From: Candidatus Gilichinskyi gelida
GTDB taxonomy: Bacteria; Acidobacteriota; Thermoanaerobaculia; Gp7-AA8
DNA: 64,000 bases
Assembly: GCA_038040385.1 (NCBI GenBank)
Contig: JBBPII010000005.1
Coordinates: 288,858-352,857, forward strand
Direction of reading: 5' to 3'
A model generated the notes under the pieces. It saw only the letters and a list, made by a program, of their open reading frames with translations, ran no database searches and was not told the DNA's origin. Both the position numbers and the translations under genes were made by a program. Of the stretch, positions 8,403 through 61,055 are shown piece after piece. Position 1 is the stretch's first letter. Every line of letters begins with the position of its first letter.

Positions 8403-8405
8403 CCC

Positions 8406-9389: not shown

Positions 9390-9426
9390 CGGTCAACTTT
9401 CAACGGCCAACGGCGAACGATTATTC

Positions 9427-17314: not shown

Positions 17315-19886
17315 TGAACACACTCAGCGCGAGTGCGGACCATATCCAAAGACCGCGACCGATGCGCCGAGAAAACACCACGCGATGATTCCCCGCCGGC
17401 ACCGCGACGCCGGCGAAGAGCGCGTTGATCTCCACCGGAGCGACCTCGCGGCCGTCGATGGTGACGCGCAGCTCGGGCGTGAGCTTCTCGGATGACGCGA
17501 GGAAGGCGTTGCCGGCGGCGCTGACGTCGATGACCTGCTCGTCCTCGGCGTAGCTGCGCAGCACGACGGTGGCGGGATGGAGCGCCGGCGTCCCCGCCGG
17601 CTGGCCTGGCGGCGTCCCGCCGCCAGCAGGCGAGACGCCTGCGGGCCAGCCGCCGGGACGGCGGCGCTCCGTCAAGACCGCCTCGGTCGCGAAATCGACG
17701 TTCTCCAGCCCGCCCGCGCGCAGCCGCGTCACCGCATGGAAGCGCGGGAGCTCGGCGAGATTGCGGAACAGCCGTCCGTCGGGCAGCTCACGCTCGAAGA
17801 TCACCGGCGTCATCACCCGCCCGTAGAAGATCGGCGCATCGCCGGCGACGTCGGTGGCACCGGTCAGCAGGCGCACCCGAAGGCCGGCCGCCTGCACGCG
17901 CAGGATGACCGACTCGCCGAGCCGCGCGTACGGCCGCAGCGGCACGTATATCCTCCCCATCACCTCGGTCTCCGCCGGCGTGAAGGCACGCGCATACACC
18001 ACGCGCGAGTCCCTGATGATGGAGACGATGACCTTCGCGCCGCTGCCGGCCACGCGGTCCACGCCGACCCCCAGCTCGATGGCGTAGAACGGCTCGGCGT
18101 CGACGCGCACGTGGCGCTGCGCCACCCCGCCCGGCGGCACGTACATCGCGGCGATCTCCTTCACCGCCGGCACCGTGGCCTTCAACGTCGTCCACTTGAT
18201 GATGTCGATGCCGCGATGCTCGATGTAGTAGCGGACGCCGAGCATGCCCACCAGCGGATCGTCGAAGTTGAACCGCAAGCTGTTGAGCAGCAACACGGTC
18301 GACTTCGTTTCCGTCGACGTCGGATCGATCCGCTGTAGTAATGAACGGTATAGTGCCTCGGACGAGAAATGGCTGCGGATGTCCTCCACCCGCGCGTACT
18401 CCGCGGTGTTCGGCCAGAGGTAGTCGAAGAACGGCGCAACGCGGAACGGCTTGGGCTGCGCTTGGAGGAATGAGACCATCGGCGTCGGCGGCGGCACCGC
18501 CACGCCCGGCTCGAGGAATGGGTAGAAGCGGCCGGCGAAGACGGCGAGATCTGCCGCCGCGAGGATGGCGAGCGTGATCGCGATGAAGTGCCGCCGTGCA
18601 ACGAAGGCCGCGCCCGCCGCGGCGAGGTACGCGACCGCGACCGGCAGCAAGAGCTGCAGGCGCGTCAGCGCCGAGTACTTGAAGCCCGGAAGCGCGGCGA
18701 CGACGCGCGCGACCGGCGTGAAGCCGAACATGCACGCCAGCATCAACGCCAGCGCCGCGAGCCAGAACCAACGCGCGCGCGCGCGGCGATTGGCGATGGC
18801 CATGAGCACCAGCGGGATCGCCAGCAGGCCGGCGTACACCGTCGCCTCGACGTAGTTGTTGAGGATCCCGAGGGCCCGGTCGCCGATCCAGTTGACGCGG
18901 TAGCCGTTGTTGCCGAGGCGGTCGGCTTTCATGAACAGCAGGAAGTGCCGCAGCGGGAAAAAGTGCTCCATCGCCGCCGCGGTGCGCGTGCCAAGGTAGC
19001 CGGTGCTGCGGACGAGGCGAACGAAGGGGACCAGGGAGGGGAGCGCCATGATCAAGGCGAGTGCGACTCCGGTTGCGGCCGTCGCGACGGCCCTCATCCG
19101 CCGCTTCGCGGCACCTTCTCCCGCACGCGGGAGAAGGACAACCTGGCCCCTCTCCCGCTTGCGGGAGAGGGTGGCCCGAAGGGCCGGGTGAGGGACCACG
19201 CGGAACAGAAAATACGCCGCCGCGAGGTACGCGCCGTACGCCATCGTCGCCGGGAATCCGGCGAGCGCGTACGCCAGCGCGATCAGGCCGATGGCCCAGA
19301 GCGGCGTCCGTTTCCCGCGCGCGGTGCGCAGGGCGATCCACAGCAGCGCCGGATAGAGCGTCGTCGCGTTCGTCGCCTGCCAGAACCACCGCACGGCGAG
19401 CGCCCCCGAGGCGGCGAAGAGGATCGCGCCGATCGCCGCGCCGCGCTTGCCGAGGCGCTCCTCGCGAAGCCAGAGGTAGGCGAAGAAGAACGCCGCGTTG
19501 AGCTTCAGGAAGATGATGCCGGTCCACACCCACGCCAGCGGAAGGGCCAGCGTCGGAAGGAGGATGAACGGCGACAGGATGGCGGCCGCGGACGACCCGA
19601 AGCCGGGGATGCCGGAGGCGACGTACGGATTCCAGTGGAACGCGCGCCAGTCGTTCTTGGCCAGCGACATCAGCGTGAAGTACGCCGTCGGCGGGTCGTT
19701 CAGCAGCGAGTTCTGCACCTCGGCCGGCCGCGCGCTGGCCCACGGCTCGAAGTTGGAGAAGACGTCGTTCGGCGACGGCACCCGGTGCATGAACAGCGTC
19801 GGGAAGAAGAAGACGAAGTGATAAACGGCCAGCGCGATCAGCGCGGTGCGGTGTTTGCGGATCCGACGACGCAAGGCGGATGACAC
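17280..19886 (-). CDS. large polytopic membrane protein, YfhO-like
   Basis: 868 aa; more than 10 TM helices N-terminally; large C-terminal extracytoplasmic domain; carries in-frame copies of repeat families B and C. Confidence 0.5.
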   Translation of the reverse strand: MSSALRRRIRKHRTALIALAVYHFVFFFPTLFMHRVPSPNDVFSNFEPWASARPAEVQNSLLNDPPTAYFTLMSLAKNDWRAFHWNPYVASGIPGFGSSAAAILSPFILLPTLALPLAWVWTGIIFLKLNAAFFFAYLWLREERLGKRGAAIGAILFAASGALAVRWFWQATNATTLYPALLWIALRTARGKRTPLWAIGLIALAYALAGFPATMAYGAYLAAAYFLFRVVPHPALRATLSRKRERGQVVLLPRAGEGAAKRRMRAVATAATGVALALIMALPSLVPFVRLVRSTGYLGTRTAAAMEHFFPLRHFLLFMKADRLGNNGYRVNWIGDRALGILNNYVEATVYAGLLAIPLVLMAIANRRARARWFWLAALALMLACMFGFTPVARVVAALPGFKYSALTRLQLLLPVAVAYLAAAGAAFVARRHFIAITLAILAAADLAVFAGRFYPFLEPGVAVPPPTPMVSFLQAQPKPFRVAPFFDYLWPNTAEYARVEDIRSHFSSEALYRSLLQRIDPTSTETKSTVLLLNSLRFNFDDPLVGMLGVRYYIEHRGIDIIKWTTLKATVPAVKEIAAMYVPPGGVAQRHVRVDAEPFYAIELGVGVDRVAGSGAKVIVSIIRDSRVVYARAFTPAETEVMGRIYVPLRPYARLGESVILRVQAAGLRVRLLTGATDVAGDAPIFYGRVMTPVIFERELPDGRLFRNLAELPRFHAVTRLRAGGLENVDFATEAVLTERRRPGGWPAGVSPAGGGTPPGQPAGTPALHPATVVLRSYAEDEQVIDVSAAGNAFLASSEKLTPELRVTIDGREVAPVEINALFAGVAVPAGNHRVVFSRRIGRGLWIWSALALSVFIIASILEAKRR
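17581..17675. repeat. repeat family B, copy B2 (inside a CDS)
   Basis: GGAGCGCCGGCGTCCCCGCCGGCTGG...GCCAGCCGCCGGGACGGCGGCGCTCC; translated in frame as ...GGWPAGVSPAGGGTPPGQPAGTP... Confidence 0.6.
19091..19195. repeat. repeat family C, copy C1 (inside a CDS)
   Basis: CCCTCATCCGCCGCTTCGCGGCACCTTCTCCCGCACGCGGGAGAAGG...CCCTCTCCCGCTTGCGGGAGAGGGTGGCCCGAAGGGCCGGGTGAGGG; encodes ...SRKRERGQVVLLPRAGEGAAKRR... in a loop. Confidence 0.65.
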
Positions 19887-23990: not shown

Positions 23991-24060
23991 CTGGAGCGCC
24001 GGCGTCCTCGCCTGCGGCGGCGGGACGCCGCCGAGCCAGCCGCCGGGACGGCGGCGTTCC
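23991..24060. repeat. repeat family B, copy B3
   Basis: GGAGCGCCGGCGTCCTCGCCTGCGGCGGCGGGACGCCGCCGAGCCAGCCGCCGGGACGGCGGCGTTCC between two minus-strand genes. Confidence 0.6.
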
Positions 24061-24062
24061 GG

Positions 24063-33207: not shown

Positions 33208-34325
33208 GCCCTCATCCGCCGCTTCGCGGCACCTTCTCCCGCAAGCGGGAGAAGGACGACTTAGCCCCTCTCCCGCGTGCGGGAGAGGGTGGCGCGAAGC
33301 GCCGGGTGAGGGCCGCCGCCGTCGCGCTGCTCTTCCTGGCGTCCGCGGCGAGCGCCCAAGTCGTGGCATCCACGCCAAAAGGCATCGTCGTCGCCCACCA
33401 CCGCGTCGTCGAACTGTACGACGGCGTCAATCGCATCTGGTCCGCGCCCGGCCTGCAAACGCCGGAGGTGGTCGTGTCGTCAAAGGACCAGATCGCGGTT
33501 CTCGACCCTTTGAACAACGAAGCGCGCATCGTCGAGCTGGCGACCGGTCGCGGCAGAACGGTGCAAACGGGAGAGACGCCAATCGCCGGCGTCTTCATCG
33601 GAAGCGCGCTTTATCTCCTCGAGCGAGACGCTCGAGCTCTCGAACGGATCGGCGCGGACGGCACGAGAGCGTCCATCTCCACCCTCGCCGATCCGGCATT
33701 TCTTCGCGAGCGCAACGGCGTGCTTTACGTCTACTCCCGCGCCGAGGGGATCGTGCAGGAGATCGCGACGTCACCGTTCGCCGCGCGACGGAGCGCGAAG
33801 ACGGCGGCCTTCGGCTCCGACTTCGAAGTCGACGGCCGCAACGCGTACGTCGTGCAGCCGCGCGCGGGGAAGATCGCCGTGGTGTCGCTGGCGACGATGA
33901 AGGCGACGGGAACGATCGACGCCGGCGCGGTGCCGGTCGACCTCGAGCTCACCTCCGGCGGCACGGCACTCACCGCCCGCACGCTGGCCATCGCCGACCC
34001 GTCGGCGAAGAAAGTGTGGCTGCTGGAAGGCGCGCAGTCGACCAGCCAGGCCTTCCTCCGCGGCTTCTTCCGCGGCCTCCTCGGCCTCGGCCTGTTTGGT
34101 GGCCGCGCCTCGCAGTTTCCCACCGGCGTCGACCGCGTCGTGGCGCGCGGCGGGCGGTGGTACGCGTACGACTCGAGCAGCGGCACGCTCTACCGTTTCA
34201 CCAAGCGGGCGAGCGCGACCGTGGCAAAAAATGTTGCTCCCCAACGGTTTGCGATTACGGCAGCCGGCGTTTTCGTCTGGAACGACGCGGTACGCCGGTT
34301 GCAGAAACTGGACAGCAATGGCTAA
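33204..34325 (+). CDS. secreted beta-propeller-like (YVTN-type repeat) protein
   Basis: Signal peptide AAAVALLFLASAASA; repeated ...YVV..RAGKIAVVSLATMKATGTIDAGAVPVDLEL... units. Confidence 0.4.
   Translation: MSPHPPLRGTFSRKREKDDLAPLPRAGEGGAKRRVRAAAVALLFLASAASAQVVASTPKGIVVAHHRVVELYDGVNRIWSAPGLQTPEVVVSSKDQIAVLDPLNNEARIVELATGRGRTVQTGETPIAGVFIGSALYLLERDARALERIGADGTRASISTLADPAFLRERNGVLYVYSRAEGIVQEIATSPFAARRSAKTAAFGSDFEVDGRNAYVVQPRAGKIAVVSLATMKATGTIDAGAVPVDLELTSGGTALTARTLAIADPSAKKVWLLEGAQSTSQAFLRGFFRGLLGLGLFGGRASQFPTGVDRVVARGGRWYAYDSSSGTLYRFTKRASATVAKNVAPQRFAITAAGVFVWNDAVRRLQKLDSNG
33208..33312. repeat. repeat family C, copy C2
   Basis: CCCTCATCCGCCGCTTCGCGGCACCTTCTCCCGCAAGCGGGAGAAGG...CCCTCTCCCGCGTGCGGGAGAGGGTGGCGCGAAGCGCCGGGTGAGGG at the 5' end of the 33204 ORF. 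It is in frame if ATG 33204 is used; alternatively it lies upstream of a GTG start near 33305. Confidence 0.65.
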
Positions 34326-35133: not shown

Positions 35134-35603
35134 GCGTGACCTGCGTTTCCTGCCACCACGACATCGACGACGCTGCGAAGCTTTGTCCGTACTGCGGCGC
35201 CGATCCGCGCAGCGGCGAGAAGATCGACACGCAGGCCATCCTGCAGGAAGTCTTCAAGCCGAAGAACACCAGCCGCTCGGCCTCGGTGATCGATTTCGCG
35301 CGGCAGCGGCAGGGCGCCGTGGTCGCCATTGCGGTGGTAGTCGGATTCCTCATCCTCGCGGGCCTCTATCAGTACGCCGTGCACCGCAACGACACCGCGG
35401 CGCTGGCCGGCAACGGCGTGCCGATCACCGAGGTCACCGACATCAGCGATCGCGGCGAGGAAACCAAGCCGCTGCCGATGCCGCCGCTGCAGTTCGCGTA
35501 CGACGGCCGTCCGCAGACGATGCGGACGTACATCGTCGAGCCGGGCGCGGCGCCGGCGCCGGCGGCGTCAACCGCCCCACCCGCTCCGCCCACCGCGCGC
35601 TAG
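35130..35603 (+). CDS. zinc-ribbon membrane protein (paralogous N-terminus to the upstream gene)
   Basis: CVSCHHDIDDAAKLCPYCGA zinc ribbon plus one TM; GTG start overlapping the upstream stop. Confidence 0.45.
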   Translation: MSVTCVSCHHDIDDAAKLCPYCGADPRSGEKIDTQAILQEVFKPKNTSRSASVIDFARQRQGAVVAIAVVVGFLILAGLYQYAVHRNDTAALAGNGVPITEVTDISDRGEETKPLPMPPLQFAYDGRPQTMRTYIVEPGAAPAPAASTAPPAPPTAR

Positions 35604-35695
35604 GAACGCCGCCGTCTCGGCGGCTGGCGCGGCGGCGTCCCGCCGCCGCAGGCGAGGCGCCTGCGGTCCAGCCGGCGAGACGCCGGCGCTCCGGT
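35604..35695. repeat. repeat family B, copy B4
   Basis: GGAACGCCGCCGTCTCGGCGGCTGGCGCGGCGGCGTCCCGCCGCCGCAGGCGAGGCGCCTGCGGTCCAGCCGGCGAGACGCCGGCGCTCC. Confidence 0.6.
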
Positions 35696-37433: not shown

Positions 37434-40400
37434 ATGCTTCGAATCGAAAAGCTGGAAATCAACGGCTTCAAATCGTTCTACGATCCCGCACAACTCACCT
37501 TCCCCGCGGCCCTGACCGCTGTCGTCGGCCCCAACGGCTGCGGGAAGTCGAACATCTGCGACGCGCTGATCTGGGTTCTGGGAGAGAACCGCGCCTCGCA
37601 CATCCGCGGCGAGACGATGGACGACGTCATCTTCCAGGGCTCGGCACGCCGCCGCGCGCTGTCGATGGGCGAAGTCACCCTCACCCTCGCCGCCACGAAC
37701 GGGGACAGCAACAACCCCGCCGCCGACGACGGCCGCATCACCATCAACCGCCGCGTCTTCCGCACCGGCGAGTCGGAGTTCCGCCTCAATGGGAAGCGCG
37801 TCCGCCTCAAGGACATCTCCGACATCCTGATGGACACCGGCCTCGGTATCCGCAACTACTCGGTGATGGAGCAGGGGAAGATCGATCTGATCCTCTCCAA
37901 CAAGCCGCAGGACCGCCGAAAGCTGATCGAGGAAGCGGCCGGCATCACGAAGTACAAGACCAAGCGGCGGGGCGCGGAGCTGAAGCTCGAGGAGACGCAG
38001 CAGAATCTGCTGCGCATCGACGACACCCTCGGCGAAGTGACGCGCAACCTCAACTCGCTGAAGCGGCAGGCCGGCAAGGCGCGCCGCCACAAGGAACTGA
38101 TCGAGGAGCTGTCGACGGCGAAGCGCGCGCTGTACAAAGGGCGCATCGTCGCCGCCGAGGCGGAGCAGAGCGCGGCTGACGAAGGCGTCGCCGCGGCGCA
38201 CGGCGGCGAGAGCGAGCTGGCCGCGCAACTGGCGAACGACGAAGCGGGCCTCGCGGAGAACCGCACCGCGCTGGCCGGCGCTGCGTCGCGCGCATCGCAC
38301 GTGCGAGAGCAGATGGCGTCGCTCACCGGAGAGGTCGAGCGGCTCCGCTCGTTTCTGCAACAGTCGGAGCTCAACCTCGGCGATCTGACGCAGCGCATCG
38401 CCGTCGGCCGGTCGCAGGTCGGGTCGCTGGAAGCGGAAGCGACGGAACAACAGACGCTGCTCGAAGAAAAAACGCGCTCCCTCGACGCCGCGCGCGCCGA
38501 GCGCAATCGCCTCCGCGAGATCGCCGAGCAGCTCGAGCACGACCGGCAGGAGCGATCGGACAAAGTGCGGACGCACGAGAAGTCGCTCGCCGACGCGCGC
38601 GAGTCGCTGATGCGCACCATTGCCAGGATCTCCGAGGCGCGCAATCAGGTGCATCAGATCGAAGTCGCCGTGGAGAAGTGCGAGTTCTACCTCGGCAAGT
38701 TGAGCGAACAGGCGCGCAAGGCCTCGGAGAATCGCGACGACGCGCAGGCCACGGTGGTCGATTGGGACCAGCGCGTGCGCGACGCCGAAGAGTTCCTGGC
38801 CCACGCGCAGCGCACCGCGCGCGAGGCCATCGCGCACCGCGACGACCTCACCGCCCGACGTGACGGTCTGCGCGAGACGCTGGCCGGCGCACGAGACCGG
38901 GTGTCGCAGACGACGTACAAGATCGACTCGCTGCGCACGCTGCTGACGTCGCTCGAGTCGCAGGACGAGGATGTCCGCCGCGCCACGCTGGAGCTGATCC
39001 CCAACGCCACGCCGGCGGCCGAATCGGTGCGCGCCACCGAGGGCTTCGAGGCAGCGCTCGACACGCTGCTGCGCGACGTGTCGAAGGCCATCGTGGTCGA
39101 CGACGCGCAAACCGCGGCGACCGCCATCGCGCGGCTGCGCGAGCGCGGCGCGGGTCGCGGGGCGTTCCTCGCGCTCGACTACGAACCAGCCCCTCACCCC
39201 CAGCCCCTCTCCCCGCGCGGCGGGGAGAGGGTGGCCGAAGGCCGGGTGAGGGGCTCCCGTCGCGGCAACGCCGCGTTTGCCGTCGCCGGCGACGGCGACG
39301 TCGCGGACGCCGTTCGCGCGGCCATGCCCGAGGCCTACATTGTCGGTACCCTCGGCGAGGCGATCGACCGGGCCAAGGAACGCCCGCACGCCACGTTCGT
39401 CACCCTCGACGGCGACATCGTCCGCGGTCCGCTGCTCATCGGCGGCAAGACCGAAGGCGCCACGCCGGGCGTCTTCTCCCTCAAGCGCCAGCTCACCGAT
39501 CTCGAGTCGCTTCACGGATTCGAGGAGACGCGCGCCGGCGGCATCGCGGTCGATTTGAACGCCCTCGAAGAGGAGCTGCGCGTCGCCGACGACGACCGCA
39601 TGCTGGCCGACGAGCGCGCGCGCTCCGCGGAGCAGGAGCTTCGCGAGCGGCGCAGCCAGCGCGAGCGCGCCGCGGTGGAGCTCGACCGCTTCCAGCGCGA
39701 CCTCGCCGTCGCCTCCGAGGAGCAGACGCTGTACGCCGAGGAAAAGGATCAGCTCCTGGCGCGCAAGCACGCGGCGATCGAAGAGTTGCGGCGCCTCGAG
39801 GAATCGGAGCGCAAATGCCAGGAGGAGATCCGCGCGAACGAGGAGCAGCTCGCCGCGCTGCGCGCCACGTTCGAAGAGGTGACGGAGATCGCGTCGAAGT
39901 CGCGCGTCGACGTCGAGACCGCCGCCGGCAACGTCAACGCCATCCAGCGGGAGCAGGAGAACGTCTCGCGCGTGGTCGTCTCGCTCGCGACGCGCGTGAC
40001 GCAACTGCAGCACGAGATCGATTCACTTCTCCACAAACAACACGAGACCGAGAGCGCCGTGGAGAACGCGCGCGGCGGACTCGATCGGTCGCTCCGCAAC
40101 CTGCACGAGCTGAGCGAGGTTCGCATAGCCGCCGAGGCCGAAGCGGCGGATCTCGAGACCCGCGTGCAGGAGATGGAAACCCGCGCGGTAACCTCGCGCG
40201 AGATCTGGAACACCGCGAAGGACGCGTTGTTCGAGGCCGAGCGGCGGCGCGATCGCGCGCGCGCGGCCTTCGAGCTGCTGCGCGAACAGATCTCGATGGA
40301 CTTGCACGCCGGTATCGACGCGCTCGCGGAGATCGAGCCCCCCTCGGACCAGGAAGCGCGCACCTCGCTGGAGGCGGAGGTCGCCCGGCTCACCGACCAC

Positions 40401-41015
40401 ATCGAGAAGATTGGGCCGGTGAACGTGCTGGCCATCGAAGAGCATCAGGAGCTCGAGCAGCGCGAGTCGTTCCTCCGCACGCAGCGCGACGATCTGGTGC
40501 AGGCCATCGAGTCGCTGCGCGGCACGATCCGCAAGATCAACCTCACCTCGCGCGAGCTGTTCCGCGAGGCGTTCAACGCCGTCAACATCTACTTCGGCGA
40601 GATCTTCACCTCGCTGTTCGGCGGCGGCACGGCGAAGATGCAACTGCTCGACGAAGAGGACGTGCTCGAGAGCGGCATCGAGCTGGCGGCGCAGCCGCCG
40701 GGGAAGAGGAATCAGTCCATCGCGCTGCTCTCGGGCGGCGAGCGCGCCCTCACCGCGCTGGCGCTGCTCTTCGCTATTTTCCGCTACAAACCGTCGCCGT
40801 TCTGCATCCTCGACGAGGTCGACGCGCCGCTCGACGAAGTGAACAACGAGCGCTTCGTCCGCCTGGTGCGCGACATGTCGCGCGACACGCAGTTCATCGT
40901 GATCACGCACTCCCGCCGCACCATGGAAGCGGCGGACATTCTCTACGGCGTGACGATGGAAGAGGCGGGATGTTCGCGGTTGGTGTCGGTCAACTTCGCG
41001 GAAGTGGAGGGGTAG
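37434..41015 (+). CDS. smc: chromosome segregation protein SMC
   Basis: 1193 aa; Walker A GPNGCGKSN; long coiled-coils; hinge; signature LSGGERALTALALLFAI; Walker B FCILDEVDAPLD. Confidence 0.92.
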   Translation: MLRIEKLEINGFKSFYDPAQLTFPAALTAVVGPNGCGKSNICDALIWVLGENRASHIRGETMDDVIFQGSARRRALSMGEVTLTLAATNGDSNNPAADDGRITINRRVFRTGESEFRLNGKRVRLKDISDILMDTGLGIRNYSVMEQGKIDLILSNKPQDRRKLIEEAAGITKYKTKRRGAELKLEETQQNLLRIDDTLGEVTRNLNSLKRQAGKARRHKELIEELSTAKRALYKGRIVAAEAEQSAADEGVAAAHGGESELAAQLANDEAGLAENRTALAGAASRASHVREQMASLTGEVERLRSFLQQSELNLGDLTQRIAVGRSQVGSLEAEATEQQTLLEEKTRSLDAARAERNRLREIAEQLEHDRQERSDKVRTHEKSLADARESLMRTIARISEARNQVHQIEVAVEKCEFYLGKLSEQARKASENRDDAQATVVDWDQRVRDAEEFLAHAQRTAREAIAHRDDLTARRDGLRETLAGARDRVSQTTYKIDSLRTLLTSLESQDEDVRRATLELIPNATPAAESVRATEGFEAALDTLLRDVSKAIVVDDAQTAATAIARLRERGAGRGAFLALDYEPAPHPQPLSPRGGERVAEGRVRGSRRGNAAFAVAGDGDVADAVRAAMPEAYIVGTLGEAIDRAKERPHATFVTLDGDIVRGPLLIGGKTEGATPGVFSLKRQLTDLESLHGFEETRAGGIAVDLNALEEELRVADDDRMLADERARSAEQELRERRSQRERAAVELDRFQRDLAVASEEQTLYAEEKDQLLARKHAAIEELRRLEESERKCQEEIRANEEQLAALRATFEEVTEIASKSRVDVETAAGNVNAIQREQENVSRVVVSLATRVTQLQHEIDSLLHKQHETESAVENARGGLDRSLRNLHELSEVRIAAEAEAADLETRVQEMETRAVTSREIWNTAKDALFEAERRRDRARAAFELLREQISMDLHAGIDALAEIEPPSDQEARTSLEAEVARLTDHIEKIGPVNVLAIEEHQELEQRESFLRTQRDDLVQAIESLRGTIRKINLTSRELFREAFNAVNIYFGEIFTSLFGGGTAKMQLLDEEDVLESGIELAAQPPGKRNQSIALLSGGERALTALALLFAIFRYKPSPFCILDEVDAPLDEVNNERFVRLVRDMSRDTQFIVITHSRRTMEAADILYGVTMEEAGCSRLVSVNFAEVEG
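39190..39254. repeat. repeat family C, short copy C3, in frame inside the smc hinge region
   Basis: CCCCTCACCCCCAGCCCCTCTCCCCGCGCGGCGGGGAGAGGGTGGCCGAAGGCCGGGTGAGGGG, encoding ...PAPHPQPLSPRGGERVAEGRVRG... Confidence 0.6.
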
Positions 41016-41110
41016 GGGGCGCGCAGCAGCGCGCCCGGCTTTGCCGGAGTACCGGGCGCACTGCTGTGCGCCCCTACCGAATCACGGGCACCACCAGCAT
41101 CTCCCCGTCC
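40867..41110. repeat. direct repeat copy 1 (smc 3' end plus downstream), about 85% identical to 43387..43620
   Basis: The 141-nt smc 3' end coding [46 protein letters not shown] recurs at 43390..43539 with 8 differences, all synonymous. The downstream CCCCTACCGAATCA... also recurs. Confidence 0.8.
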
Positions 41111-41117
41111 GGCCGCG

Positions 41118-42443
41118 TTACCAGTCGCTCCCCTTCACGGCTCGTGGCGGTGAAATCAATCGGGAGAGCGAGGTGACAACGGGCTGGGTGCCCACTTCGC
41201 CGCTCGCGTTGACACCCGTCGACAGAAAAACGTCATAGATCTTGGCATTGTGATACTTGCCTTTGCGATCGCGCACCATGGCCTTGGCGCGGAACCGGAA
41301 CGTGTTGCCGTTCTCGTCGGTGTAGTTCAAGCGGACGTAGTGGAAATCGATCGACCTGACACCGGCCACCGACAGAGCGATCAACTCGCTCGGCTGTGAA
41401 ATGCCGTCGTGATCCGAGTCGAGCCAAAGAAGCAGCGTTCCCCAAAGCCGGTCGCGATCATCCAACTGCCCGTCGCCATTGCCGCCCAGCGCCGCGGTGT
41501 CGAATTCTCCAAGGGCGACGAAGCCATTCGGAGCCTTGTGCCCATTCGCGAGCGGTGTCGCATTGCCAAACAGCTCGCGGCCGTCGCCGATACGCCCGTC
41601 GCCATTGCGATCGCGGCAGAGGAAGGCATCGCCGCCGGCTGCGCTGGTCCAGCCGATACGCTCCGCCCGACGATCGGCGTTCAGATCGAACGAGACACCA
41701 TTCTCCGCATTCGTCAGAGTGAAGCCATCGTCGTCCAGATCGATGATGATCGGCGATTCACCAGGCGGGCAGTAATAGCTGTTCCCCGTGTACTCGCATT
41801 GCCTGAGGCACGACGAGTTGCACGTCTGGAGGTCGGCCTGCTGCTGATCGACCTGTTCCTCGATAGGCGTATACCACTGCTCGTCTATATGGTTGCAGTC
41901 CTCGATGTCGAGCCCGCTATAGCCTGTGGCATAGGCATGATTCCCCATCACATGGCCAAAACACGCACCGCCGACTTCTCCGTTGGATGGATGGCCGAGG
42001 CCGAGAACGTGACCGAACTCGTGCTCCAGTGAATTCACCCACTCTTGCGAGCATGCACGGCCAAGAATATCGCTCTCGTAAACGGTGATCGTGCCGCCGG
42101 TGGTCTGTCCCGATTGATTATCCTGGTAAGCCGCGCAGCCGCCGGTCAGCGTCTGCGATACACCGCTCACGTAATTGACGGTGACCTGGAGGCATCCAGA
42201 GCCGGAACACGTTCCGGAGCCGATGGAGGGATAGTCATAGCTGCTGCCGCCGCCGCAGCCCGAATTCCAATAGCCGGCGGCGGCGGAGATGGCGGTGTCG
42301 TCAGGAAAGTTGGACGTCGTTACCCTGACTTGCGTGATGTAAAACGTAGTATCGCGGTAGCCGAGCAGCGTCGAGCATGCGGACGCCGGCACCGCCGCGA
42401 GCAGAAGGAGAGAGCCGAGGACGAGAAGATAAGGCGTTCTCAT
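41118..42443 (-). CDS. secreted zinc metalloprotease (metzincin HExxHxxGxxH) with C-terminal Ca-binding EF-hand/dockerin-like repeats
   Basis: Signal peptide; HEFGHVLGLGH; three D-x-[DN]-G-D-G-x-[IL] style loops (DRNGDGRIGDGRE, GGNGDGQLDDRD, DSDHDGISQPSE). Confidence 0.65.
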   Translation of the reverse strand: MRTPYLLVLGSLLLLAAVPASACSTLLGYRDTTFYITQVRVTTSNFPDDTAISAAAGYWNSGCGGGSSYDYPSIGSGTCSGSGCLQVTVNYVSGVSQTLTGGCAAYQDNQSGQTTGGTITVYESDILGRACSQEWVNSLEHEFGHVLGLGHPSNGEVGGACFGHVMGNHAYATGYSGLDIEDCNHIDEQWYTPIEEQVDQQQADLQTCNSSCLRQCEYTGNSYYCPPGESPIIIDLDDDGFTLTNAENGVSFDLNADRRAERIGWTSAAGGDAFLCRDRNGDGRIGDGRELFGNATPLANGHKAPNGFVALGEFDTAALGGNGDGQLDDRDRLWGTLLLWLDSDHDGISQPSELIALSVAGVRSIDFHYVRLNYTDENGNTFRFRAKAMVRDRKGKYHNAKIYDVFLSTGVNASGEVGTQPVVTSLSRLISPPRAVKGSDW

Positions 42444-42456
42444 GGTTGGCCACCCG

Positions 42457-43389
42457 TCACCGTGTCACGCGATCGGGCCGAGCGAGCATCTCGCGTACCT
42501 GTGGCAAGCTGGCGCCCTGCATTCCCCACGCGCGCAGACGAGGAACGACGACGAGGGCACCGCCATGCCAGACGAAGAGGTGCTCGGCAGGAAGGCGGAA
42601 GAGCGTTCCGTCAGGATTCGCAGGCAACCCGGCGACGAAGAGAACCGTATCGCCATTCGCCGGCACCTCGCTGTAACGAGGATCCGAGGTGCAGAGCGCG
42701 ACTCCCTCCACCGTCAGAGTCCCCTTGGGAATGAGGAGATAAGCGGTATCGCCACCGCGTGATTTGCTCGTACGCGTGACGCGTATCTGTACGACCGTGA
42801 ATGGCGTCCCGGCATAAAGTCCGACGTCGGAACCGACCACCGTGCCCTCCACGAGCGGCTGTGTGGACGCGTAGCGGCGCACATCGTCCAGGGTCGCGGC
42901 GGATGGCATCGGCGCGTCGTCCAAAAGCGCGCCAAAGGTGACATCGCATTTGCCGCTCGAGACCGTGGCACCGGCCGCCGAGCTTCGGCGCCCCTCCATT
43001 TGACGGAGATGATTTCGCAGCTGCGCAGCCTCGTGCTCCGCGAGCGCGCCCGAACGAAGAGTCTCGTGGTCGAGCGCCGCGCGTGCCGAAATCCACAATG
43101 GAGCGGTGCGGTAGGGGTTCGTGCTCCAGAACTTGTCGGGAATCTCTGCGCCACCTTGTGCGGCGGTCGTGGTCAACATCAGTGCGAGCGCGGTAAGGAT
43201 TATGTGGGTCACTCGAAACCTCCTGCAGTTTGGGTAGTCATTCCGTTTCTCCGCAATAACACGGAGCGGGGATTCTTGCTTCCGCGCGCGAATGGTGTCA
43301 AACGCGACAGCGCGGAGCGTCTCACCGGCAGGCGAGCATGAGCAGCGATCGGGTTGGGGCCGCGGGTAGTCCCCCCTTGGCACTGGCAA
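42457..43389 (-). CDS. hypothetical secreted protein
   Basis: Probable GTG start at 43212 giving signal peptide [20 protein letters not shown]; no recognisable domain. Confidence 0.35.
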
Positions 43390-43539
43390 CTACCGAACAT
43401 GTCGCGCGACACGCAGTTCATCGTCATCACCCACTCCCGCCGCACGATGGAGGCGGCGGACATCCTCTACGGCGTGACGATGGAAGAGGCGGGGTGTTCG
43501 CGGCTGGTGTCGGTGAACTTCGCGGAAGTGGAGGGGTAG
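43390..43539 (+). pseudogene. displaced duplicate of the smc 3' end (last 46 codons)
   Basis: Has no upstream smc context (preceded by ...GGCAACTACCGAAC); same frame and stop as the smc end; synonymous-only divergence. Confidence 0.7.
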
Positions 43540-43551
43540 GGCGCGCAGCCC

Positions 43552-43782
43552 CTACCGAATCATCGGCACGATCACCATCTCGCCATCCGCGTTCGTCACC
43601 AGCCGCATGATCGACGTATCGCTGGTGTCGGTCAGCTTGCCGTCGCCGCCGCAGTGGCGGCATTGGCCGGTGGCGGGGGCGGCGGCGCCGATGGGGACGA
43701 AGTGGAAGCGCTCGTTGCGGCAGCGCTCGCAAAGCTCGCGCACCACGTCGTAATGAAATAACGAAAGACGGCTGTGGCTCAT
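43552..43782 (-). CDS. small zinc-ribbon protein
   Basis: 76 aa, CERCRNER...CRHCGGDG. Its C-terminal coding sequence (LVTNADGEMVIVPMIR*) lies in repeat copy 2. A decayed out-of-frame copy (LVTRPDGEMLVVPVIR*) is in repeat copy 1. Confidence 0.4.
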   Translation of the reverse strand: MSHSRLSLFHYDVVRELCERCRNERFHFVPIGAAAPATGQCRHCGGDGKLTDTSDTSIMRLVTNADGEMVIVPMIR

Positions 43783-43794
43783 GGCGCGCGGATT

Positions 43795-44670
43795 CTAGGC
43801 GGCGGGCGGGGCGTCGCTTGTGAGCTGGCTCACGCCGCGGGTCACGATCCAGGCAACGAGCAGTCCTGCGGCAGCGGACGCCAGGACGTCGGACGGCCAG
43901 TGCCGGAAGGCGAGGATGCGCGAGAGGCCGACGACGGCGGCGAGCAGGAAGGCGATGGCGCGCATCGCGCGCGACGGCGACGCGAACATCAGCACGCCGG
44001 CCAGCGCGAACGCGCCGACGGTGTGCCCGCTGGGGAACGAGCTCGCTGCTGCACGTGCGTGGTGAAACGGCCCGAGCCACAGCTCGGGACGGCTGCGGCC
44101 GACGATCAGCTTCACGAGCTGGCCGAGGAGACCCGCCGCCAGGCCGGCGACGGTCATCGCCACGGCGTACCCGATCCAACGGCGATGGCGGAACGCCACG
44201 CCGGCGAGAACGAAGAAGCCCACCACCATCGCCGGGTTCATCCCGCCGCCGAAGCGGTTGGCGATGCGGATGAAGTCTTCGACGGCGTCGGACTGCACGC
44301 GCTCGGCCCAGGCGATCACCGGCCCATCGGCGAAGAGCCAGACCAGCGCCACGGCGACGGCCGCGGCGCCGAGCGCGATCGCGTCGGCCGCGCGCAGGCG
44401 TATGCGCAGCGCGCGCAGGACGCGCCATGGCTCGCGGTAGTCGGCCGAGAGATCGATCAGCGACAGTGCGAACAAGCCGGCGATGAACCAGAAGGCGACG
44501 TCCCACGCCGCCGCCTCGCGGCCGAGGAACGAGAGCTCGTCGACGCCGATGGCCGCGTTGCAGCAGAGGCGGTTGACGGAGACGAACGGCGACGGCCAGA
44601 ACACCGACAGCGCCAGCAGGGCGATGAATCCCGCGGCGGCCAGCCGGCGCTTAGCGTCGATAGACATCAA
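43795..44670 (-). CDS. PAP2 family phosphatase
   Basis: KLIVGRSRPE, PSGHT, SRILAFRHWPSDV (PAP2 motifs 1-3); 6 TM. Confidence 0.8.
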   Translation of the reverse strand: MMSIDAKRRLAAAGFIALLALSVFWPSPFVSVNRLCCNAAIGVDELSFLGREAAAWDVAFWFIAGLFALSLIDLSADYREPWRVLRALRIRLRAADAIALGAAAVAVALVWLFADGPVIAWAERVQSDAVEDFIRIANRFGGGMNPAMVVGFFVLAGVAFRHRRWIGYAVAMTVAGLAAGLLGQLVKLIVGRSRPELWLGPFHHARAAASSFPSGHTVGAFALAGVLMFASPSRAMRAIAFLLAAVVGLSRILAFRHWPSDVLASAAAGLLVAWIVTRGVSQLTSDAPPAA

Positions 44671-46216
44671 ACCATTTTCCGATCATCCGCACCTCGTCGA
44701 CCTTGCGGTAGCCGGTCAGCGCCGGCGCGATCTCCTTCGCGTGGCGGCGACTGGTCACGATCAGGTTGGGCTTCCTCCGCAGCAGCGTCTCGGGATCGGC
44801 GTAGACCACGCGCTCCAGCGAGCGCGGGAGATCGCGCGTCCAGAGGTACGGCGTGGAGTAAAGCGCGATCTCCTCCGGCGGAACGCGCTGCCGCTCGAGG
44901 ACCGTGACCAGCGCCTGCGTGGAGCCGAACCCGTTCACGAACGGCAGCAGATACGCCGCCACGAATACCAGGACCGCGACCGTCACCGCGCCGGCGGCGA
45001 TGGTCGACGTCTCCAGCGACGCGCGCGCGGCGATGACGAAGGCGACGACCGACACCACTAGCGTGAAGGCGATCAGTCCGTTCACGCCCGCCACCGAATC
45101 GAATTCGCGCGGCATCTTGACGCCGCCCACGATCGCGCCGATGAAGACGATGGCGATGGCGATCAGGTTCGCCGCCCTCGCCCACCGCACGCCCGCCCGC
45201 ACCCCCTCGGCGACCAGCAGCGCCACCGCGGGGATCATGGCCATCATGTAGACGTCGAGTTTGCTGCTCATGAGCGAGTACGGCAGCAGAACGGCGATGA
45301 TCCAGTTGATGAGAAAGCGGTGCGTGCGCCACAGCGCGATGGCCGAGGCGAGCGCGAGGAAGAACCAGGGAAAGAGCGACAGCGGCAGGCGCTCGAGGTA
45401 ATACCACGGCGGCGCCTTGTGCACCCACGAGGCAATCGCCCGGCCAACCGTCTGCTTGACCATCACGTCACGCGCGTAGTCGCCGCCGCCCACCAGCACG
45501 GCGGGCACGAACCAGAGCAGCGGGATGACGATCATGACCAGAAGAGCGAGCCCCTCATCCGCCCTTCGGGCACCTTCTCCCCGCACGCGGGGAGAAGGAG
45601 GCTGTGGGCCCTCTCCCGCCCGCGGGAGAGGGTGGCGCGAAGCGCCGGGTGAGGGTCGGCGGCGCAGCGACTCCAGAAGGAAGAGGACGAGACCGATCAC
45701 GATGGCCATCGGCCCTTTGACCAGCGTGGCCACGCCGAGCGCGACGCCGCACCACAGCAGCGCGCGGCGGTCGTCGCGCTCGAAGAACGTCTCCATCTGG
45801 AGCAGGCCGAGGGCGATGAGCGCGGTGAAGGCGACGTCCATCCGCGCCGTCTGCGCCGAGCCCCAGATCAAGAGCGAGGTCCCGCAGACATACGCCGCCA
45901 GCGGCCCGCCGCGCCGCCACATCAGCCACAGCAGAAAAGCGAACGCGGCGATGGATGGCAGCACGAACGCCCAGGTCGAGTAGATGCCGAGGGGAAACGT
46001 CAGCAGATCGATGGCCCAGAAGTGCAGCGGCGGCTTGTGCGTGAACGGCGCGCCGTTGAGCGTGGGGAGAAAAAATGCGCCGGTGGTGCGCATCTCGCGG
46101 ACCACCTGCCCGTACTTCGTCTCGTCGCCGACGAAGAGGTCGCGGTTCGCGGGCGAGATCAGGACGGAAAAAAACAGGAGGAAGACGGCGACGGGCAGAA
46201 GGCGCTGGCGAGGCAT
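44651..46216 (-). CDS. GT39/GT83-type (ArnT/PMT-like) membrane glycosyltransferase
   Basis: N-terminal FVGDETKYGQVVREM (the DE motif of the ArnT/PMT family); more than 10 TM helices; has an in-frame family C repeat in a loop. Confidence 0.65.
   Translation of the reverse strand: MPRQRLLPVAVFLLFFSVLISPANRDLFVGDETKYGQVVREMRTTGAFFLPTLNGAPFTHKPPLHFWAIDLLTFPLGIYSTWAFVLPSIAAFAFLLWLMWRRGGPLAAYVCGTSLLIWGSAQTARMDVAFTALIALGLLQMETFFERDDRRALLWCGVALGVATLVKGPMAIVIGLVLFLLESLRRRPSPGASRHPLPRAGEGPQPPSPRVRGEGARRADEGLALLVMIVIPLLWFVPAVLVGGGDYARDVMVKQTVGRAIASWVHKAPPWYYLERLPLSLFPWFFLALASAIALWRTHRFLINWIIAVLLPYSLMSSKLDVYMMAMIPAVALLVAEGVRAGVRWARAANLIAIAIVFIGAIVGGVKMPREFDSVAGVNGLIAFTLVVSVVAFVIAARASLETSTIAAGAVTVAVLVFVAAYLLPFVNGFGSTQALVTVLERQRVPPEEIALYSTPYLWTRDLPRSLERVVYADPETLLRRKPNLIVTSRRHAKEIAPALTGYRKVDEVRMIGKWFDVYRR
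45551..45655. repeat. repeat family C, copy C4 (inside a CDS)
   Basis: CCCTCATCCGCCCTTCGGGCACCTTCTCCCCGCACGCGGGGAGAAGG...CCCTCTCCCGCCCGCGGGAGAGGGTGGCGCGAAGCGCCGGGTGAGGG; encodes ...RRPSPGASRHPLPRAGEGPQPPSPRVRGEG... Confidence 0.65.
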
Positions 46217-49758: not shown

Positions 49759-49860
49759 GGAGCGCCGGCGTCCTCGCCGGCTGGCTCGCAGGCGTCCCGC
49801 CTGCGCCCCGTACGGCGGCGGGACGCCGCCGGGCCAGCCGCCGGGACGGCGGCGTTCCGT
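49759..49860. repeat. repeat family B, copy B5
   Basis: GGAGCGCCGGCGTCCTCGCCGGCTGGCTCGCAGGCGTCCCGCCTGCG...GCGGGACGCCGCCGGGCCAGCCGCCGGGACGGCGGCGTTCC between convergent genes. Confidence 0.65.
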
Positions 49861-57854: not shown

Positions 57855-59139
57855 TCAAACATTAACATTTACAGATCGGCGCGTGGCCGAATGATGTAGT
57901 TCCATTCACCGTGAAACGAATCAGGGGCGAGGTTGACTGTGGCGATCTCTTTGTCACTCACCTTGCGGCCAACAGGGTACCGACGTCTGTCCAATCGGCA
58001 CGTTACCTTCAGCCCCTTGGCAGTGGTTGTCTTGGCGATTAGACGCACGATGGTTTCGTAGTCGCGCAGGGGCTCGCCACGCCAGTTCGACGAGATGAAT
58101 GAGAACAAGCGATGCTCGACCTTGTTCCATTTGCTTGTTCCTGGAGGGAAGTGGCACACCACGATGGAGAGGCCAGCCCAGTCCGCTAGTCCCTGCAGCC
58201 CGATCTTCCATTGCCGAAGGCGGTAGCCATTGCTGCCGCCGGCGTCCGCGGTAATCAGGAGAGTGTTGGCTTTCGGATAAAGGCGCCGTCCTTCAGCGCG
58301 CCACACCCTCGAATGGATGCTACCGCAAACGCACCGGTGTCATGATCGGTCCCCACGTTCACGAACCCGGTATTGCGACCCAAGTCGTAGATGCCGTATG
58401 GGTACGCTCGCGGCACCGATGGATCGGGGAAGTCGTGAACGTTCACTCTCTGAGGAGTTTTCGTCTTCAGCCATTGCCGACCCTCGTTCTGGTAATTGCC
58501 AAGGATCTCTTTCTTCTTCGTATCGACAGAGATGACTGGTCGCTTCCGAGCGAGGGCCTCGCGGACTTTTTCATTAATGTATTGAAACTGCGCGTCGCGG
58601 TCCGGGTGATCGCTGCCCTCGTCGGTCTTGCGGTTCCCCTGTAGGCTGTAGTCCATCTGTCGCAGCAACTGTGCGACCTTCTCGTGGCTCACCGAGTGGT
58701 CCTGGGCGGCCAGTTCAGCCGAGAGAGCGCGCGTACTCTTGCTTGTCCATCTCAGCGGCGAGTCCGGGTCCCCACGCGTGAGCGGTTCGACCAGCGCTCC
58801 AGTTTGCTCGGTAGGTCGGGATCGAGCGCGACCAGGGACGGCCGTCCCCCACCCCAGCGCCGAACGCGTCCCGGCGGCAGCGGCGGATCTTCCAATTCTT
58901 GCAATCCCTTCGTGATCGTGACTCGAGACAATCCGCAGGCCTTGCTGACGGTCGTCACGCCTCCGTGGCCGAGTTCACGAGCCTCGCTCGCGGCAAACAA
59001 CCGCCGCGCCCGCTCGTCCAGATGAGGCCAAAGGAGAGCCACCTTCTGCTGAAGCGCACGCACGGTCGTCATGCTCAAGGAGCTTAACCTGAAGGTCTCT
59101 GAATGTAAACGTTATTACTTGACGACGCCTTACCGCAGC
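57855..59139 (-). mobile_element. IS630-family insertion sequence with fragmented transposase
   Basis: Imperfect terminal inverted repeats GTCAAACATTAACATTTACAG (57855..) and CTGAATGTAAACGTTATTACTTGAC (..59139). Transposase in 3 frames: HTH part 58752..59078, middle 58255..58692, DDE part 57869..58306. Confidence 0.65.
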
Positions 59140-60950: not shown

Positions 60951-61052
60951 CGGAGCGCCGGCGTCCCGCCGGCTGGACGGGCGCCGTCCCGGCGCCCCGA
61001 TGCACGCGGCGGCGAGACGCCGCCGGGCCAGCCGCCGAGGACGGCGGCGCTC
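60951..61052. repeat. repeat family B, copy B6
   Basis: GGAGCGCCGGCGTCCCGCCGGCTGGACGGGCGCCGTCCCGGCGCC...GGCGAGACGCCGCCGGGCCAGCCGCCGAGGACGGCGGCGCTCC, 3' of dnaJ. Confidence 0.65.
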
Positions 61053-61055
61053 CGG

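Follow-up and report, generated by a model that had tools for sequence, protein, structure and literature searches.

The last codons of smc occur twice in a 64,000-nucleotide stretch of the Candidatus Gilichinskyi gelida genome (hereafter the window), once at the end of the gene and once on the far side of a two-gene insert. This raises the question of how a chromosomal gene came to have two ends, and which of them arrived from elsewhere. We propose that the insert was acquired horizontally by recombination with DNA of a related Thermoanaerobaculia lineage, through homologous exchange combined with a non-homologous join and with no need for a dedicated mobile element, and give this reading a probability of roughly 0.5. 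The locus would then bear a clear, if unremarkable, trace of horizontal gene transfer, with a related soil bacterium as the donor.

The smc gene (37434–41015, forward strand, from the ORF list) is intact and encodes 1193 amino acids, with 63–98% identity to the SMC proteins of Thermoanaerobaculia MAGs and metagenome contigs. The last 46 codons of the gene fall within the first of two direct repeats, which repeat search and alignment place at 40873–41128 (copy 1, 256 nt) and 43397–43606 (copy 2, 210 nt), 2524 nt apart from start to start. The first-pass annotation had put the starts at 40870 and 43390 and the length at ~230 bp, figures that the alignment corrects. The repeated content is the last 46 smc codons, an inter-gene hairpin and 59 nt of the 3′ end of a Zn-ribbon gene. 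The window is matched at 100% identity by Logan contigs from SRR28961246, -269, -291 and -292, of which one (L057) crosses both repeats, from PAP2 to smc. Because the same structure is present in four independent read sets, with one contig spanning it, the repeat–insert–repeat arrangement is real and not an assembly artefact. From one relative to another (about 136 in all), the DNA that follows smc is hypervariable. The comparison with related genomes that the first-pass annotation proposed turned up the empty junction in two close relatives, L067 and L066: there smc is followed by a hairpin and then by the Zn-ribbon gene, with nothing else between, and the two genes are about 70 nt apart. Positions 1–771 of L067 align to 40245–41015 of the window and positions 629–2827 to 43397–45541, and L066 aligns alike.

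The smc portion of the repeat, part A (40873–41015 against 43397–43539), aligns without gaps, with 135 of 143 positions identical. All eight substitutions are synonymous, at third or first codon positions (codons 9, 11, 16, 18, 22, 32, 36 and 39 of the last 46), and the 46-residue peptide is the same in the first copy, A1, and the second, A2 (dS 0.29, dN 0; Nei–Gojobori). Synonymous-only change in a recurring smc end had already been noticed from the sequence and held on realignment with the dN/dS check; eight random substitutions were all synonymous at a frequency of 2e-5 in 100,000 simulations. Part B, comprising 17 codons and the stop of the Zn-ribbon gene (41070–41128 against 43548–43606), likewise aligns without gaps, at 78% identity, with five replacements (RLVTRPDGEMLVVPVIR in copy 1 versus RLVTNADGEMVIVPMIR in copy 2; dS 0.62, dN 0.22). 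Here the earlier reading was right about replacement changes in copy 1, but not in calling this gene end out of frame, there being no frame shift relative to copy 2. The peptide of the first part B copy, B1, is of the kind found in working orthologues within the same clade: it shares R-P with L066 and VVPVIR* with both L064 and L067, and one of its codons differs by three bases, a change to a state present in another lineage. Judged from these alignments, the copies of A and B are products of divergence under selection acting on working smc and Zn-ribbon genes. Because both parts differ as working orthologues do, recombination with related-lineage DNA is favoured.

The same comparison bears on another possibility, in which the smc/Zn-ribbon junction was duplicated in tandem locally, the copies diverged in place and the cassette was inserted between them. 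One relative, L020, does have a tandem duplication that involves the smc tail, with 674-bp units each combining 82 nt of smc with a Uma2 gene. However, divergence in place predicts mostly replacements and indels in the unused copy, against none in the eight differences of part A (P 2e-5); it also sits poorly with 5.6% divergence in A versus 22% in B, and with a three-base codon change that matches the state of another lineage. A chimera assembled from two strains is opposed by four identical independent assemblies and a single contig that spans the structure. We regard this pair of explanations as very improbable, and the first-pass annotation was justified in rejecting a local duplication on the synonymous-only differences, to which the other-lineage state of B1 can now be added.

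Between the two stop codons of copy 1 lies a hairpin predicted by folding (41013–41076; 58 nt between the stops, −58.6 kcal/mol, z −6.96) with both stop codons in its stem, which is probably a bidirectional terminator. Its sequence occurs once in the window; copy 2 retains 12 nt, the outer stem, and lacks 46 nt. B1 (41074–41128, reverse strand, in the aligned block 41070–41128) is an orphan orthologue end, with no Zn-ribbon gene upstream of the fragment, and the protease ORF of the insert takes its last three codons and stop from it in a different frame. A2 (43397–43539, forward strand, 46 codons plus stop) is the orphan smc tail. It stands next to the intact Zn-ribbon gene (43552–43782, reverse strand, 76 amino acids with CxxC...CxxC, from the ORF list), whose last 17 codons are the second part B copy, B2, and whose orthologues occupy the same place in about 40 relatives. 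From 43397 onward the window is colinear with L067 through the Zn-ribbon gene and PAP2.

Which copy is foreign can be approached through distances to relatives. The dS of A2 to L064 and L067 is 0.21 and 0.29, like that of the remaining smc (0.23 and 0.27), and that of A1 (40873–41015, forward strand, 46 codons plus stop) is 0.39 and 0.45, about 1.7 times as high, a gap that depends on 3–4 sites. A1 has three unique synonymous states; every state of A2 is present in relatives, and A2 shows no decay. A1 is contiguous with B1, and because B1 carries states of another lineage, copy 1 is more likely the imported one. From these patterns A1, now the working end of smc, is probably an imported replacement tail, and A2 probably the displaced native end. 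The first-pass annotation had taken the second fragment for the foreign copy, and the raised dS of A1, the smc-like dS of A2 and the other-lineage states of B1 reverse that assignment.

Perfect conservation of the A2 peptide despite a dS of 0.29 might instead mean that A2 is a working mini-gene, kept by selection in place for a 46-residue SMC C-terminal peptide that could serve as a ScpA (kleisin) decoy, for instance. A2 begins at ATG, and gene callers annotate a 46-aa gene there. Yet neither a Shine–Dalgarno sequence nor a promoter-like site was found upstream of A2, and most such 46-aa database "genes" are contig-edge calls. Orphan tails in relatives do not behave as such a gene either: one of the three differences between the L051 tail copies is a replacement, the L153 and L154 orphans begin past the ATG, and that of L020 is decaying (77% amino acid identity). 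B1, which is unable to be a gene, diverges in the same orthologue-like way, and we find a mini-gene scarcely credible.

The DNA unique to the insert (41129–43396) is 2268 bp long, with two genes and a 184-nt upstream region. Its GC content is 0.57–0.65 versus 0.66–0.74 in the flanks, and the GC3 of its genes is 0.71–0.73 versus 0.87–0.92 in host genes; by this composition it is foreign. The first gene (41118–42443, reverse strand, 441 amino acids) encodes a putative lipoprotein zinc metalloprotease with the motif HEFGHVLGLGH (HExxHxxGxxH; 41991–42023), a weak Peptidase_M43 match, a precomputed match to Pfam PF26745 "SPM", and a putative signal peptide with Cys, read by eye; 310 homologues were retrieved. 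The second (42457–43212, reverse strand) encodes a secreted protein of 251 amino acids from a GTG start that GGAGG precedes by 7 nt. An NTR/TIMP-like fold in the C-terminal domain makes this protein a possible cognate inhibitor of the protease. Upstream of both, a consensus scan picks out a promoter-like site (TTGACA, 18 nt, AAGAAT; 43272–43301, reverse strand) that scores 10 of 12 consensus matches as a pattern match only. The pair recurs elsewhere, beside groESL (L144, L147), after ileS (L146), after dapB (L149) and at further unrelated loci, and its GC3 is below that of neighbouring host genes in L144, L145 and L146, the loci where this was measurable. The first-pass annotation thus described the insert well, as lower in GC, coding for two secreted proteins and retaining no integrase: no integrase or transposase domains were found in it by domain search, and no terminal inverted repeats by repeat search.

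That annotation's first reading was nonetheless an attP-like integrative element. Such an element would be small and non-autonomous, of the CIME or satellite type, and moved by a site-specific recombinase that either acted in trans or was later lost, with attB in smc around codons 1146–1153, attP carrying the replacement smc tail, much as e14 and phage 21 do for icd, and the recombinase acting on the sequence around ATGTCGCGCGACACGCAGTTCATC. In architecture the locus matches the attP-fragment strategy (PMC7192596) exactly, with the target gene restored, the displaced fragment at the far end and relatives with an empty site. The opening 28 nt of the repeat are identical between the copies, and the two complete inserts, in the window and in L051, are alike in size (2.3 and 2.1 kb).

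Orphan smc tails turn up repeatedly in Thermoanaerobaculia, with five loci at the DNA level and eight chimeric ORFs, the latter known as predicted proteins only, and they can be cited on both sides. Four DNA-verified orphans with differing cargo start within 16 nt (window 0, L051 −4, L154 +7, L153 +12; SMC residues 1148, 1146, 1150 and 1152), and 7 of the 13 starts fall within residues 1139–1153. Such clustering is closer to what site-directed insertion would give than to random joining, but it could also arise if longer SMC head fragments are selected against and the search was biased against shorter ones. The fifth DNA-level orphan (L020) starts at residue 1168, and the chimeric tails at 1008, 1108, about 1119, about 1120, 1139, about 1140, 1153 and 1161, so that the whole range is 1008–1168, about 160 codons. 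Three of the tails are fused to a truncated PyrK-like, NspC-like or ProA piece (P0242, P0244 and P0248). Varied starts with fusions to truncated unrelated genes are the pattern given by arbitrary fragment ends, and starts at 1008, 1108, about 1120, 1139, 1161 and 1168 are impossible from one crossover site.

A recombinase is also absent from both complete elements: no recombinase domains were found in the L051 insert, and a survey of 74 ORFs that follow smc in relatives showed no recurring recombinase family, although single occurrences would escape it. No motif is common to the element ends of the window, L051, L153 and L154; viral contigs gave no match, and matches in phage collections were whole bacterial smc genes. 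In the portion of the TIGER survey's supplementary data available to us, smc is not among the recurrent targets. Another gene is involved in L144, where the 3′ end of a convergent Calx-beta gene is repeated (361 nt, 86%) on either side of a degenerate second protease/partner module; module and repeats are both missing from the relative L147; by its sequence this is the same architecture as at smc. The integrative element lacks its defining parts here; one moved by an integrase acting in trans is less probable than recombination but retains some likelihood. Of the annotation's two readings, homologous recombination as the route of acquisition agrees better with the data.

The cassette could also have been inserted with a target duplication of about 200–250 bp, from a staggered break that was filled in. 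If homologous recombination with relatives later replaced the alleles of the working smc and Zn-ribbon genes, A2 and B1 would be left as relics of the old ones. One event would then produce orphans on both sides of the insert; A2 does show states present in relatives and no decay, and core genes flanking hotspots may recombine often. Three events are required, however (the insertion and two allele replacements), and the duplication would be of unusual length. Relics of a single genome should also agree in affinity, yet B1 is L066-like and A2 L064-like, and L051 and L144 would each need the same chain of events. We consider this sequence of events unlikely.

Returning to recombination with a related lineage, we infer the order of events, the pathway and the donor arrangement as follows. 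The incoming DNA would have carried, in order, the donor smc end (A1), the terminator hairpin, the 59-nt Zn-ribbon remnant (B1) and the two-gene cassette with its promoter region. On one side it would have exchanged by homology within smc; on the other, it would have joined non-homologously to the recipient smc near codon 1148, 143 nt ahead of the stop. The join sits at the centre of a 14-bp palindrome (CGCGACA/TGTCGCG), and the junction has only 2 nt of microhomology (AC). The outcome would be an intact smc with an imported, protein-identical tail, and the recipient's last 46 codons left as an untranslated orphan beside the intact Zn-ribbon gene. The route would be homology-facilitated illegitimate recombination (HFIR), although single-crossover (Campbell-type) insertion of a circularised fragment would give an equal product. 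No locus with smc, hairpin, Zn-ribbon remnant and protease in this order was found among 136 loci, and no recombination breakpoint is visible in smc upstream of 40873.

Several known systems resemble this locus. Cis-mobilisable elements (CIMEs), as in Streptococcus thermophilus, and other integrase-less islands between att sites are, like the window insert, small cargo islands at a conserved gene end, with direct repeats at their edges and no recombination genes. CIMEs have att sites in common with an integrase-bearing cognate ICE of their own species; no partner element or fixed att site was found for the window insert. Campbell-type insertion-duplication is a standard genetic tool that gives exactly a repeat, an insert and a repeat, with the homology segment doubled on both sides, but it would need a circle carrying the 210–256 bp smc/Zn-ribbon junction segment, and none was observed. 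In the insertions of e14 and phage 21 in icd, the insert in the 3′ end of a conserved gene supplies a replacement end with mostly synonymous differences, and the displaced original end is kept as a pseudogene fragment on the far side, as in the icd/icdC pair made by e14 in Escherichia coli (PMC13626634); the "attP fragment strategy" is described as a general scheme (PMC7192596). However, e14 is a prophage of 15 kb that encodes its integrase, crosses over at one fixed site and is excised on SOS induction, whereas the window insert is 2.5 kb, has no recombinase and belongs among independent orphan tails that start at many positions. HFIR in natural transformation of Acinetobacter, S. pneumoniae and P. 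stutzeri is similar in that foreign DNA enters on a homologous anchor and its far end is joined at a microhomology of a few bases; in the laboratory it is RecA-dependent, with joins at 3–10 bp of microhomology (PMC6382021). Those laboratory events usually delete recipient DNA, whereas the window locus, in an uncultured host, keeps an overlapping orphan. Because the join would lie inside the anchor gene itself, smc, the recipient tail would survive as a duplicate.

Two diverged copies of the smc 3′ end stand in tandem in this uncultured member of the Thermoanaerobaculia (Acidobacteriota), separated by two genes of low GC3. The smc gene itself (37434–41015, + strand) is intact and ends in the same 46 residues that are encoded by an orphan smc tail, A2, at 43397–43539. 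Between them, on the strand opposite to smc, lie genes for a 441-residue protein, which has an HEFGHVLGLGH zinc motif and a signal peptide resembling that of a lipoprotein (41118–42443), and for a 251-residue secreted protein (42457–43212), named AABO58_10660 and AABO58_10665 at NCBI. An intact 76-residue Zn-ribbon gene follows (43552–43782), and then genes for a PAP2 phosphatase and a PMT_2 glycosyltransferase. With a repeat finder and pairwise alignment, the duplicated stretch (210–256 nt) resolves into an smc part of 94% identity (40873–41022 versus 43397–43546) and a Zn-ribbon part of 78% identity (41070–41128 versus 43548–43606). Between these parts copy 1 is longer than copy 2 by 46 nt, which form the inside of a 58-nt hairpin (−58.6 kcal/mol) whose stem holds both stop codons and which reads GGGGGCGCGCAGCAG...CTGCTGTGCGCCCC between smc and the Zn-ribbon remnant; copy 2 retains the outer stem alone.

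The uninterrupted form of this locus is preserved in relatives. Among 136 related loci, taken from a scan of species-representative genomes and another of JGI metagenomes, many keep the gene order beta-lactamase-like, smc, Zn-ribbon, PAP2, PMT_2. Of the relatives with sufficient sequence, the closest, L067 (PAP2 94% identical in amino acids) and L066, have convergent smc and Zn-ribbon genes with only a hairpin of ~70 nt separating them, and L067 is colinear with 40245–41015 and next with 43397–45541, so ~2.5 kb must have been added in the window’s lineage. The empty smc/Zn-ribbon junction anticipated by the first-pass annotation therefore exists in both. Across the class the region 3′ of smc is hypervariable and holds Uma2 endonuclease genes, lipoproteins, kinases or a hydrogenase operon, depending on the relative. 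The Uma2-family gene (PF05685, 187–195 aa) is convergent to smc in many relatives, sometimes as two diverged tandem copies of 73–75% DNA identity; examples are L002 (11749–12936), L020 (6450–7711) and, 3′ of smc, L003, L007, L008, L011, L015, L026 and L049.

Several palindromic sequences accompany the locus. Within the clade one very long perfect stem (−54 to −59 kcal/mol; L067 765–845, L066 535–612, window 41013–41076) takes in the stop codons of both smc and the convergent Zn-ribbon gene; its position is constant, with the window sequence unrelated to that of L066 and L067. We considered whether the copy-1 hairpin is a repeated REP-like element and rejected this, its sequence being unique within the window. 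A REP-like intergenic palindrome of ~47 nt (CGGCGGCGGGACGCCGCCGGGCCAGCCGCCGGGACGGCGGCGTTCCG) does occur in at least eight copies in the window, among them 49813–49859, 24015–24061, 35603–35648, 61007–61054, 60951–60996, 17593–17671 and 8362–8404, and also in relatives; at the related locus L064 it sits at both ends of the smc/Zn-ribbon gap. A GC-rich palindromic repeat of ~105–115 nt is found at 45552–45664, 33209–33321, 19085–19194 and 39197–39256, and lies in frame within two coding sequences, that of the PMT_2 glycosyltransferase (...PSPGASRHPLPRAGEGPQPPSPRVRGEGARRADEG...) and the middle of smc (...PHPQPLSPRGGERVAEGRVRG...). The sole transposase-like trace seen in the window, 14 kb from the insert, is a set of three short adjoining ORFs (57869–59078, − strand) that by eye resemble a broken ISAzo13-type transposase.

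The pattern of divergence between the copies indicates where they evolved. Over the 46 smc codons there are eight differences (G/C, G/C, C/G, A/G, T/C, A/G, T/C, C/G), none of which replaces an amino acid (dS 0.29, dN 0); eight substitutions placed at random would leave the peptide unchanged in ~2 of 100,000 cases (P 2e-5). In the Zn-ribbon part 13 of 59 bases differ and five replacements, all conservative, result, every state being plausible for a working orthologue: the remnant in copy 1 (B1) has the same R-P codons as L066 and the VVPVIR* ending of L064 and L067. Divergence is thus 5.6% in the smc part and 22% in the adjoining Zn-ribbon part. From the synonymous-only changes, the orthologue-like states and this inequality, it follows that each copy evolved in a different genome; divergence in place of an unused copy would not, judging from the substitutions, give such differences. 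Realignment and dN/dS therefore bear out the first-pass annotation, which had described the smc part as free of non-synonymous differences, placed the evolution of the copies in separate genomes, and regarded the island as acquired together with a homologous smc end rather than duplicated locally. A local tandem duplication, in which the unused copy should have gained replacements and indels at the silent-site rate and neighboring parts should not differ so unequally, is very improbable, and so is an artefact, since contigs from four sequencing runs assembled independently are 100% identical to the window and one of them covers the entire structure. Translation of A2 as a 46-residue mini-gene would be a still more remote explanation for the conserved peptide. 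A diversity-generating retroelement was rejected: the differences are not restricted to adenines, and no reverse transcriptase domain was found.

The second fragment had initially been taken for the imported one, and the comparison with relatives reverses this assignment. A2 lies at a dS of 0.21 and 0.29 from L064 and L067, much as do the 184 upstream smc codons (0.23 and 0.27). The tail in use, A1, lies at 0.39 and 0.45, a difference that rests on 3–4 sites, and has three unique synonymous states. Because A2 matches the upstream gene and A1 is more distant, the working smc probably ends in imported DNA, and A2 would be the displaced native end, as far as a handful of sites can tell. Block-wise identity and GC3 gave no signal of a recombination breakpoint within smc. 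B1 is clearly foreign to the host genome’s own Zn-ribbon gene.

Orphan smc tails recur in related bacteria. L051 has the same architecture with other cargo, a 2.1-kb insert containing a Peptidase_C39-like gene and one further ORF, between repeats that are 89.6% identical and extend from the same smc start point to just beyond the smc terminator; their coding part is 98% identical and the spacer far more diverged. In L153 and L154 orphan tails follow unrelated DNA and start 12 and 7 nt deeper in smc than the window’s, and the starts of these four DNA-verified orphan tails, including the window’s, fall within 16 nt. L020 has a tandem unit consisting of the last 82 nt of smc (from residue 1168) and a Uma2 gene. 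From 1.8 billion representative proteins, further orphan tails were recovered in close relatives, starting at SMC residues 1008, 1108, ~1119, ~1120, 1139, ~1140, 1153 and 1161. Altogether 13 orphan starts span residues 1008–1168, eight of them at the predicted-protein level only, and the junctions differ between independent events. As read from these sequences, the starts seem to be a spread concentrated at 1139–1153 with no single site. The concentration may reflect selection against fragments that keep the Walker B and D-loop motifs; alternatively, it can be explained by the protein query, which penalised shorter fragments.

The foreign segments joined to these tails end at arbitrary places, including within genes: in P0242 (PyrK-like), P0244 (NspC-like) and P0248 (ProA) the tail is fused in frame to a truncated unrelated gene. 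N-terminal extensions were tested in 11 chimeric ORFs, and ten, these three among them, had no match to out-of-frame smc; the other, P0252, duplicates smc internally. For the eight protein-level orphans, none of the six extensions tested was out-of-frame smc. Database ‘proteins’ consisting of 46 SMC residues appeared to offer an excess of further orphans and were set aside, the two looked up (L151 and L152) being gene calls at contig edges. In other lineages, the SMC-derived ORFs P0241, P0252 and P0347 contain their own C-terminal region twice in one frame, P0241 repeating its last ~50 residues beyond a spacer of 30. Such ORFs hint at smc-tail duplication outside Thermoanaerobaculia as well; assembly error is also possible.

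The cargo has a history of its own. The protease and partner genes form a conserved pair at unrelated loci elsewhere, including sites adjacent to groESL (L144, L147), after ileS (L146) and after dapB (L149), and their GC3 is below that of flanking host genes in the three cases where it was measurable (L144, L145, L146). The combination of a secreted metalloprotease with a protein of predicted TIMP/NTR-like fold suggests a mobile protease–inhibitor pair. We rejected the flanking repeats as a feature of the cassette itself because L147, L149 and L150 carry it without them. On the 1.1-Mb JGI contig L144, a second, degenerate protease/partner module, in which the protease is a pseudogene with HELGHFLGLDD, lies between the copies of a 361-nt direct repeat of 86% identity (9302–9661 and 10897–11257) that consists of the 3′ end of a Calx-beta/CLIPPER gene in convergent orientation; the relative L147 has one module only and no repeat. 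The repeat–insert–repeat architecture is therefore also present at a gene other than smc.

We consider it about an even bet (probability roughly 0.5) that the structure records recombination with DNA of a related lineage, combining homologous exchange within smc with a nearby non-homologous join. This reading is favored by the spread of starts, the fusions to truncated genes, the L144 case and the lack of a recombinase. The route would be homology-facilitated illegitimate recombination, which has been documented in the laboratory (PMC6382021), or an equivalent single crossover of a circularised fragment. Microhomology at the junction amounts to 2 nt (AC) in the window, which is compatible with chance, and to 6 nt (CGCCAG) in L051. 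The window join bisects a perfect 14-bp palindrome, CGCGACA|TGTCGCG, read from the sequence, which may have promoted breakage. Given the 59-nt Zn-ribbon remnant, the cassette would already have adjoined smc in the donor, standing where most of the Zn-ribbon gene would otherwise be; the arrangement smc, hairpin, Zn-ribbon remnant, cassette was not found among the 136 related loci.

Site-specific integration by a recombinase that acted in trans or was lost, modelled on e14 in icd (PMC13626634, PMC7192596), is a possible but doubtful alternative. It would account for the four clustered DNA-verified boundaries, for an smc restored by an imported fragment with its displaced end on the far side (43397–43539), and for the uninterrupted site in L067 and L066; other orphans, however, start at 1008, 1108, ~1120, 1139, 1161 and 1168, and Pfam and NCBIfam detected no recombinase domain in the window or L051 cargo. 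For 74 ORFs 3′ of smc in relatives without conserved synteny, none is among the 25 commonest of 89 Pfam families, a listing in which a lone integrase could escape notice, and no motif or inverted repeat is shared by the insert ends of the window, L051, L153 and L154. The initial statement that no integrase remains accordingly holds for both cargo proteins, and the proposal of an integrative element with an attP-like site finds no support in the features that define such elements: no recombinase was detected, and the starts, four of them within 16 nt, range over 1008–1168. A transposon or insertion sequence was rejected, there being no inverted repeat pairing the insert ends, no transposase domain and a duplication of 210–256 nt. 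Viral contigs gave no match in three scans (SMC tail protein, a degenerate 12-letter pattern and a Firmicutes-type 48-residue fragment). A viral origin was likewise set aside after tblastn against 50,697 phage records, where two of the 13 hits were inspected and appear to be bacterial DNA filed as phage because they carry full-length smc genes.

We found nothing specific in the literature on smc as a known integration target. It is conceivable, if unlikely, that smc codons ~1139–1153 (...CGCGACATGTCGCGCGACACGCAGTTCATC...) are a preferred entry point for integrase-less two-gene cassettes, each with its own replacement tail. Delivery would then fall to a recombinase, host-encoded or acting in trans and so far unconnected with smc; alternatively, RecA would drive a ‘homology-addressed cassette’ process, with 150–250 bp of smc tail and terminator as the portable address that Thermoanaerobaculia genomes share. 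If true, this would be a cassette-exchange hotspot operating without an integron integrase. A long target duplication with later allele replacement is an unlikely alternative for the origin of the repeats.

Recombination with related-lineage DNA does not overturn current ideas, because the mechanisms invoked are already known; the event belongs to a known kind and is well documented here, and the recurrence of orphan smc tails in the lineage is a useful extra. It offers a clean natural case, from an uncultured soil Acidobacteriota, of an essential gene serving as an undamaged landing pad for foreign DNA, with the locus at hand both ‘before’ (the empty junction of the relatives) and ‘after’, and with a protein-identical replacement tail delivered by the incoming DNA. 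Since orphan smc tails are common in the lineage, they could serve as markers of past gene transfer and of its junctions in metagenomes, including cases in which neither integrase nor transposase survives. The mobile protease–inhibitor pair is a candidate worth testing. Elements of the e14/icd type carry a recombinase gene inside, usually near one end, whereas the window and L051 inserts are without one; what the window shares with that type is a target restored by an element-borne fragment, with the displaced piece at the other end.
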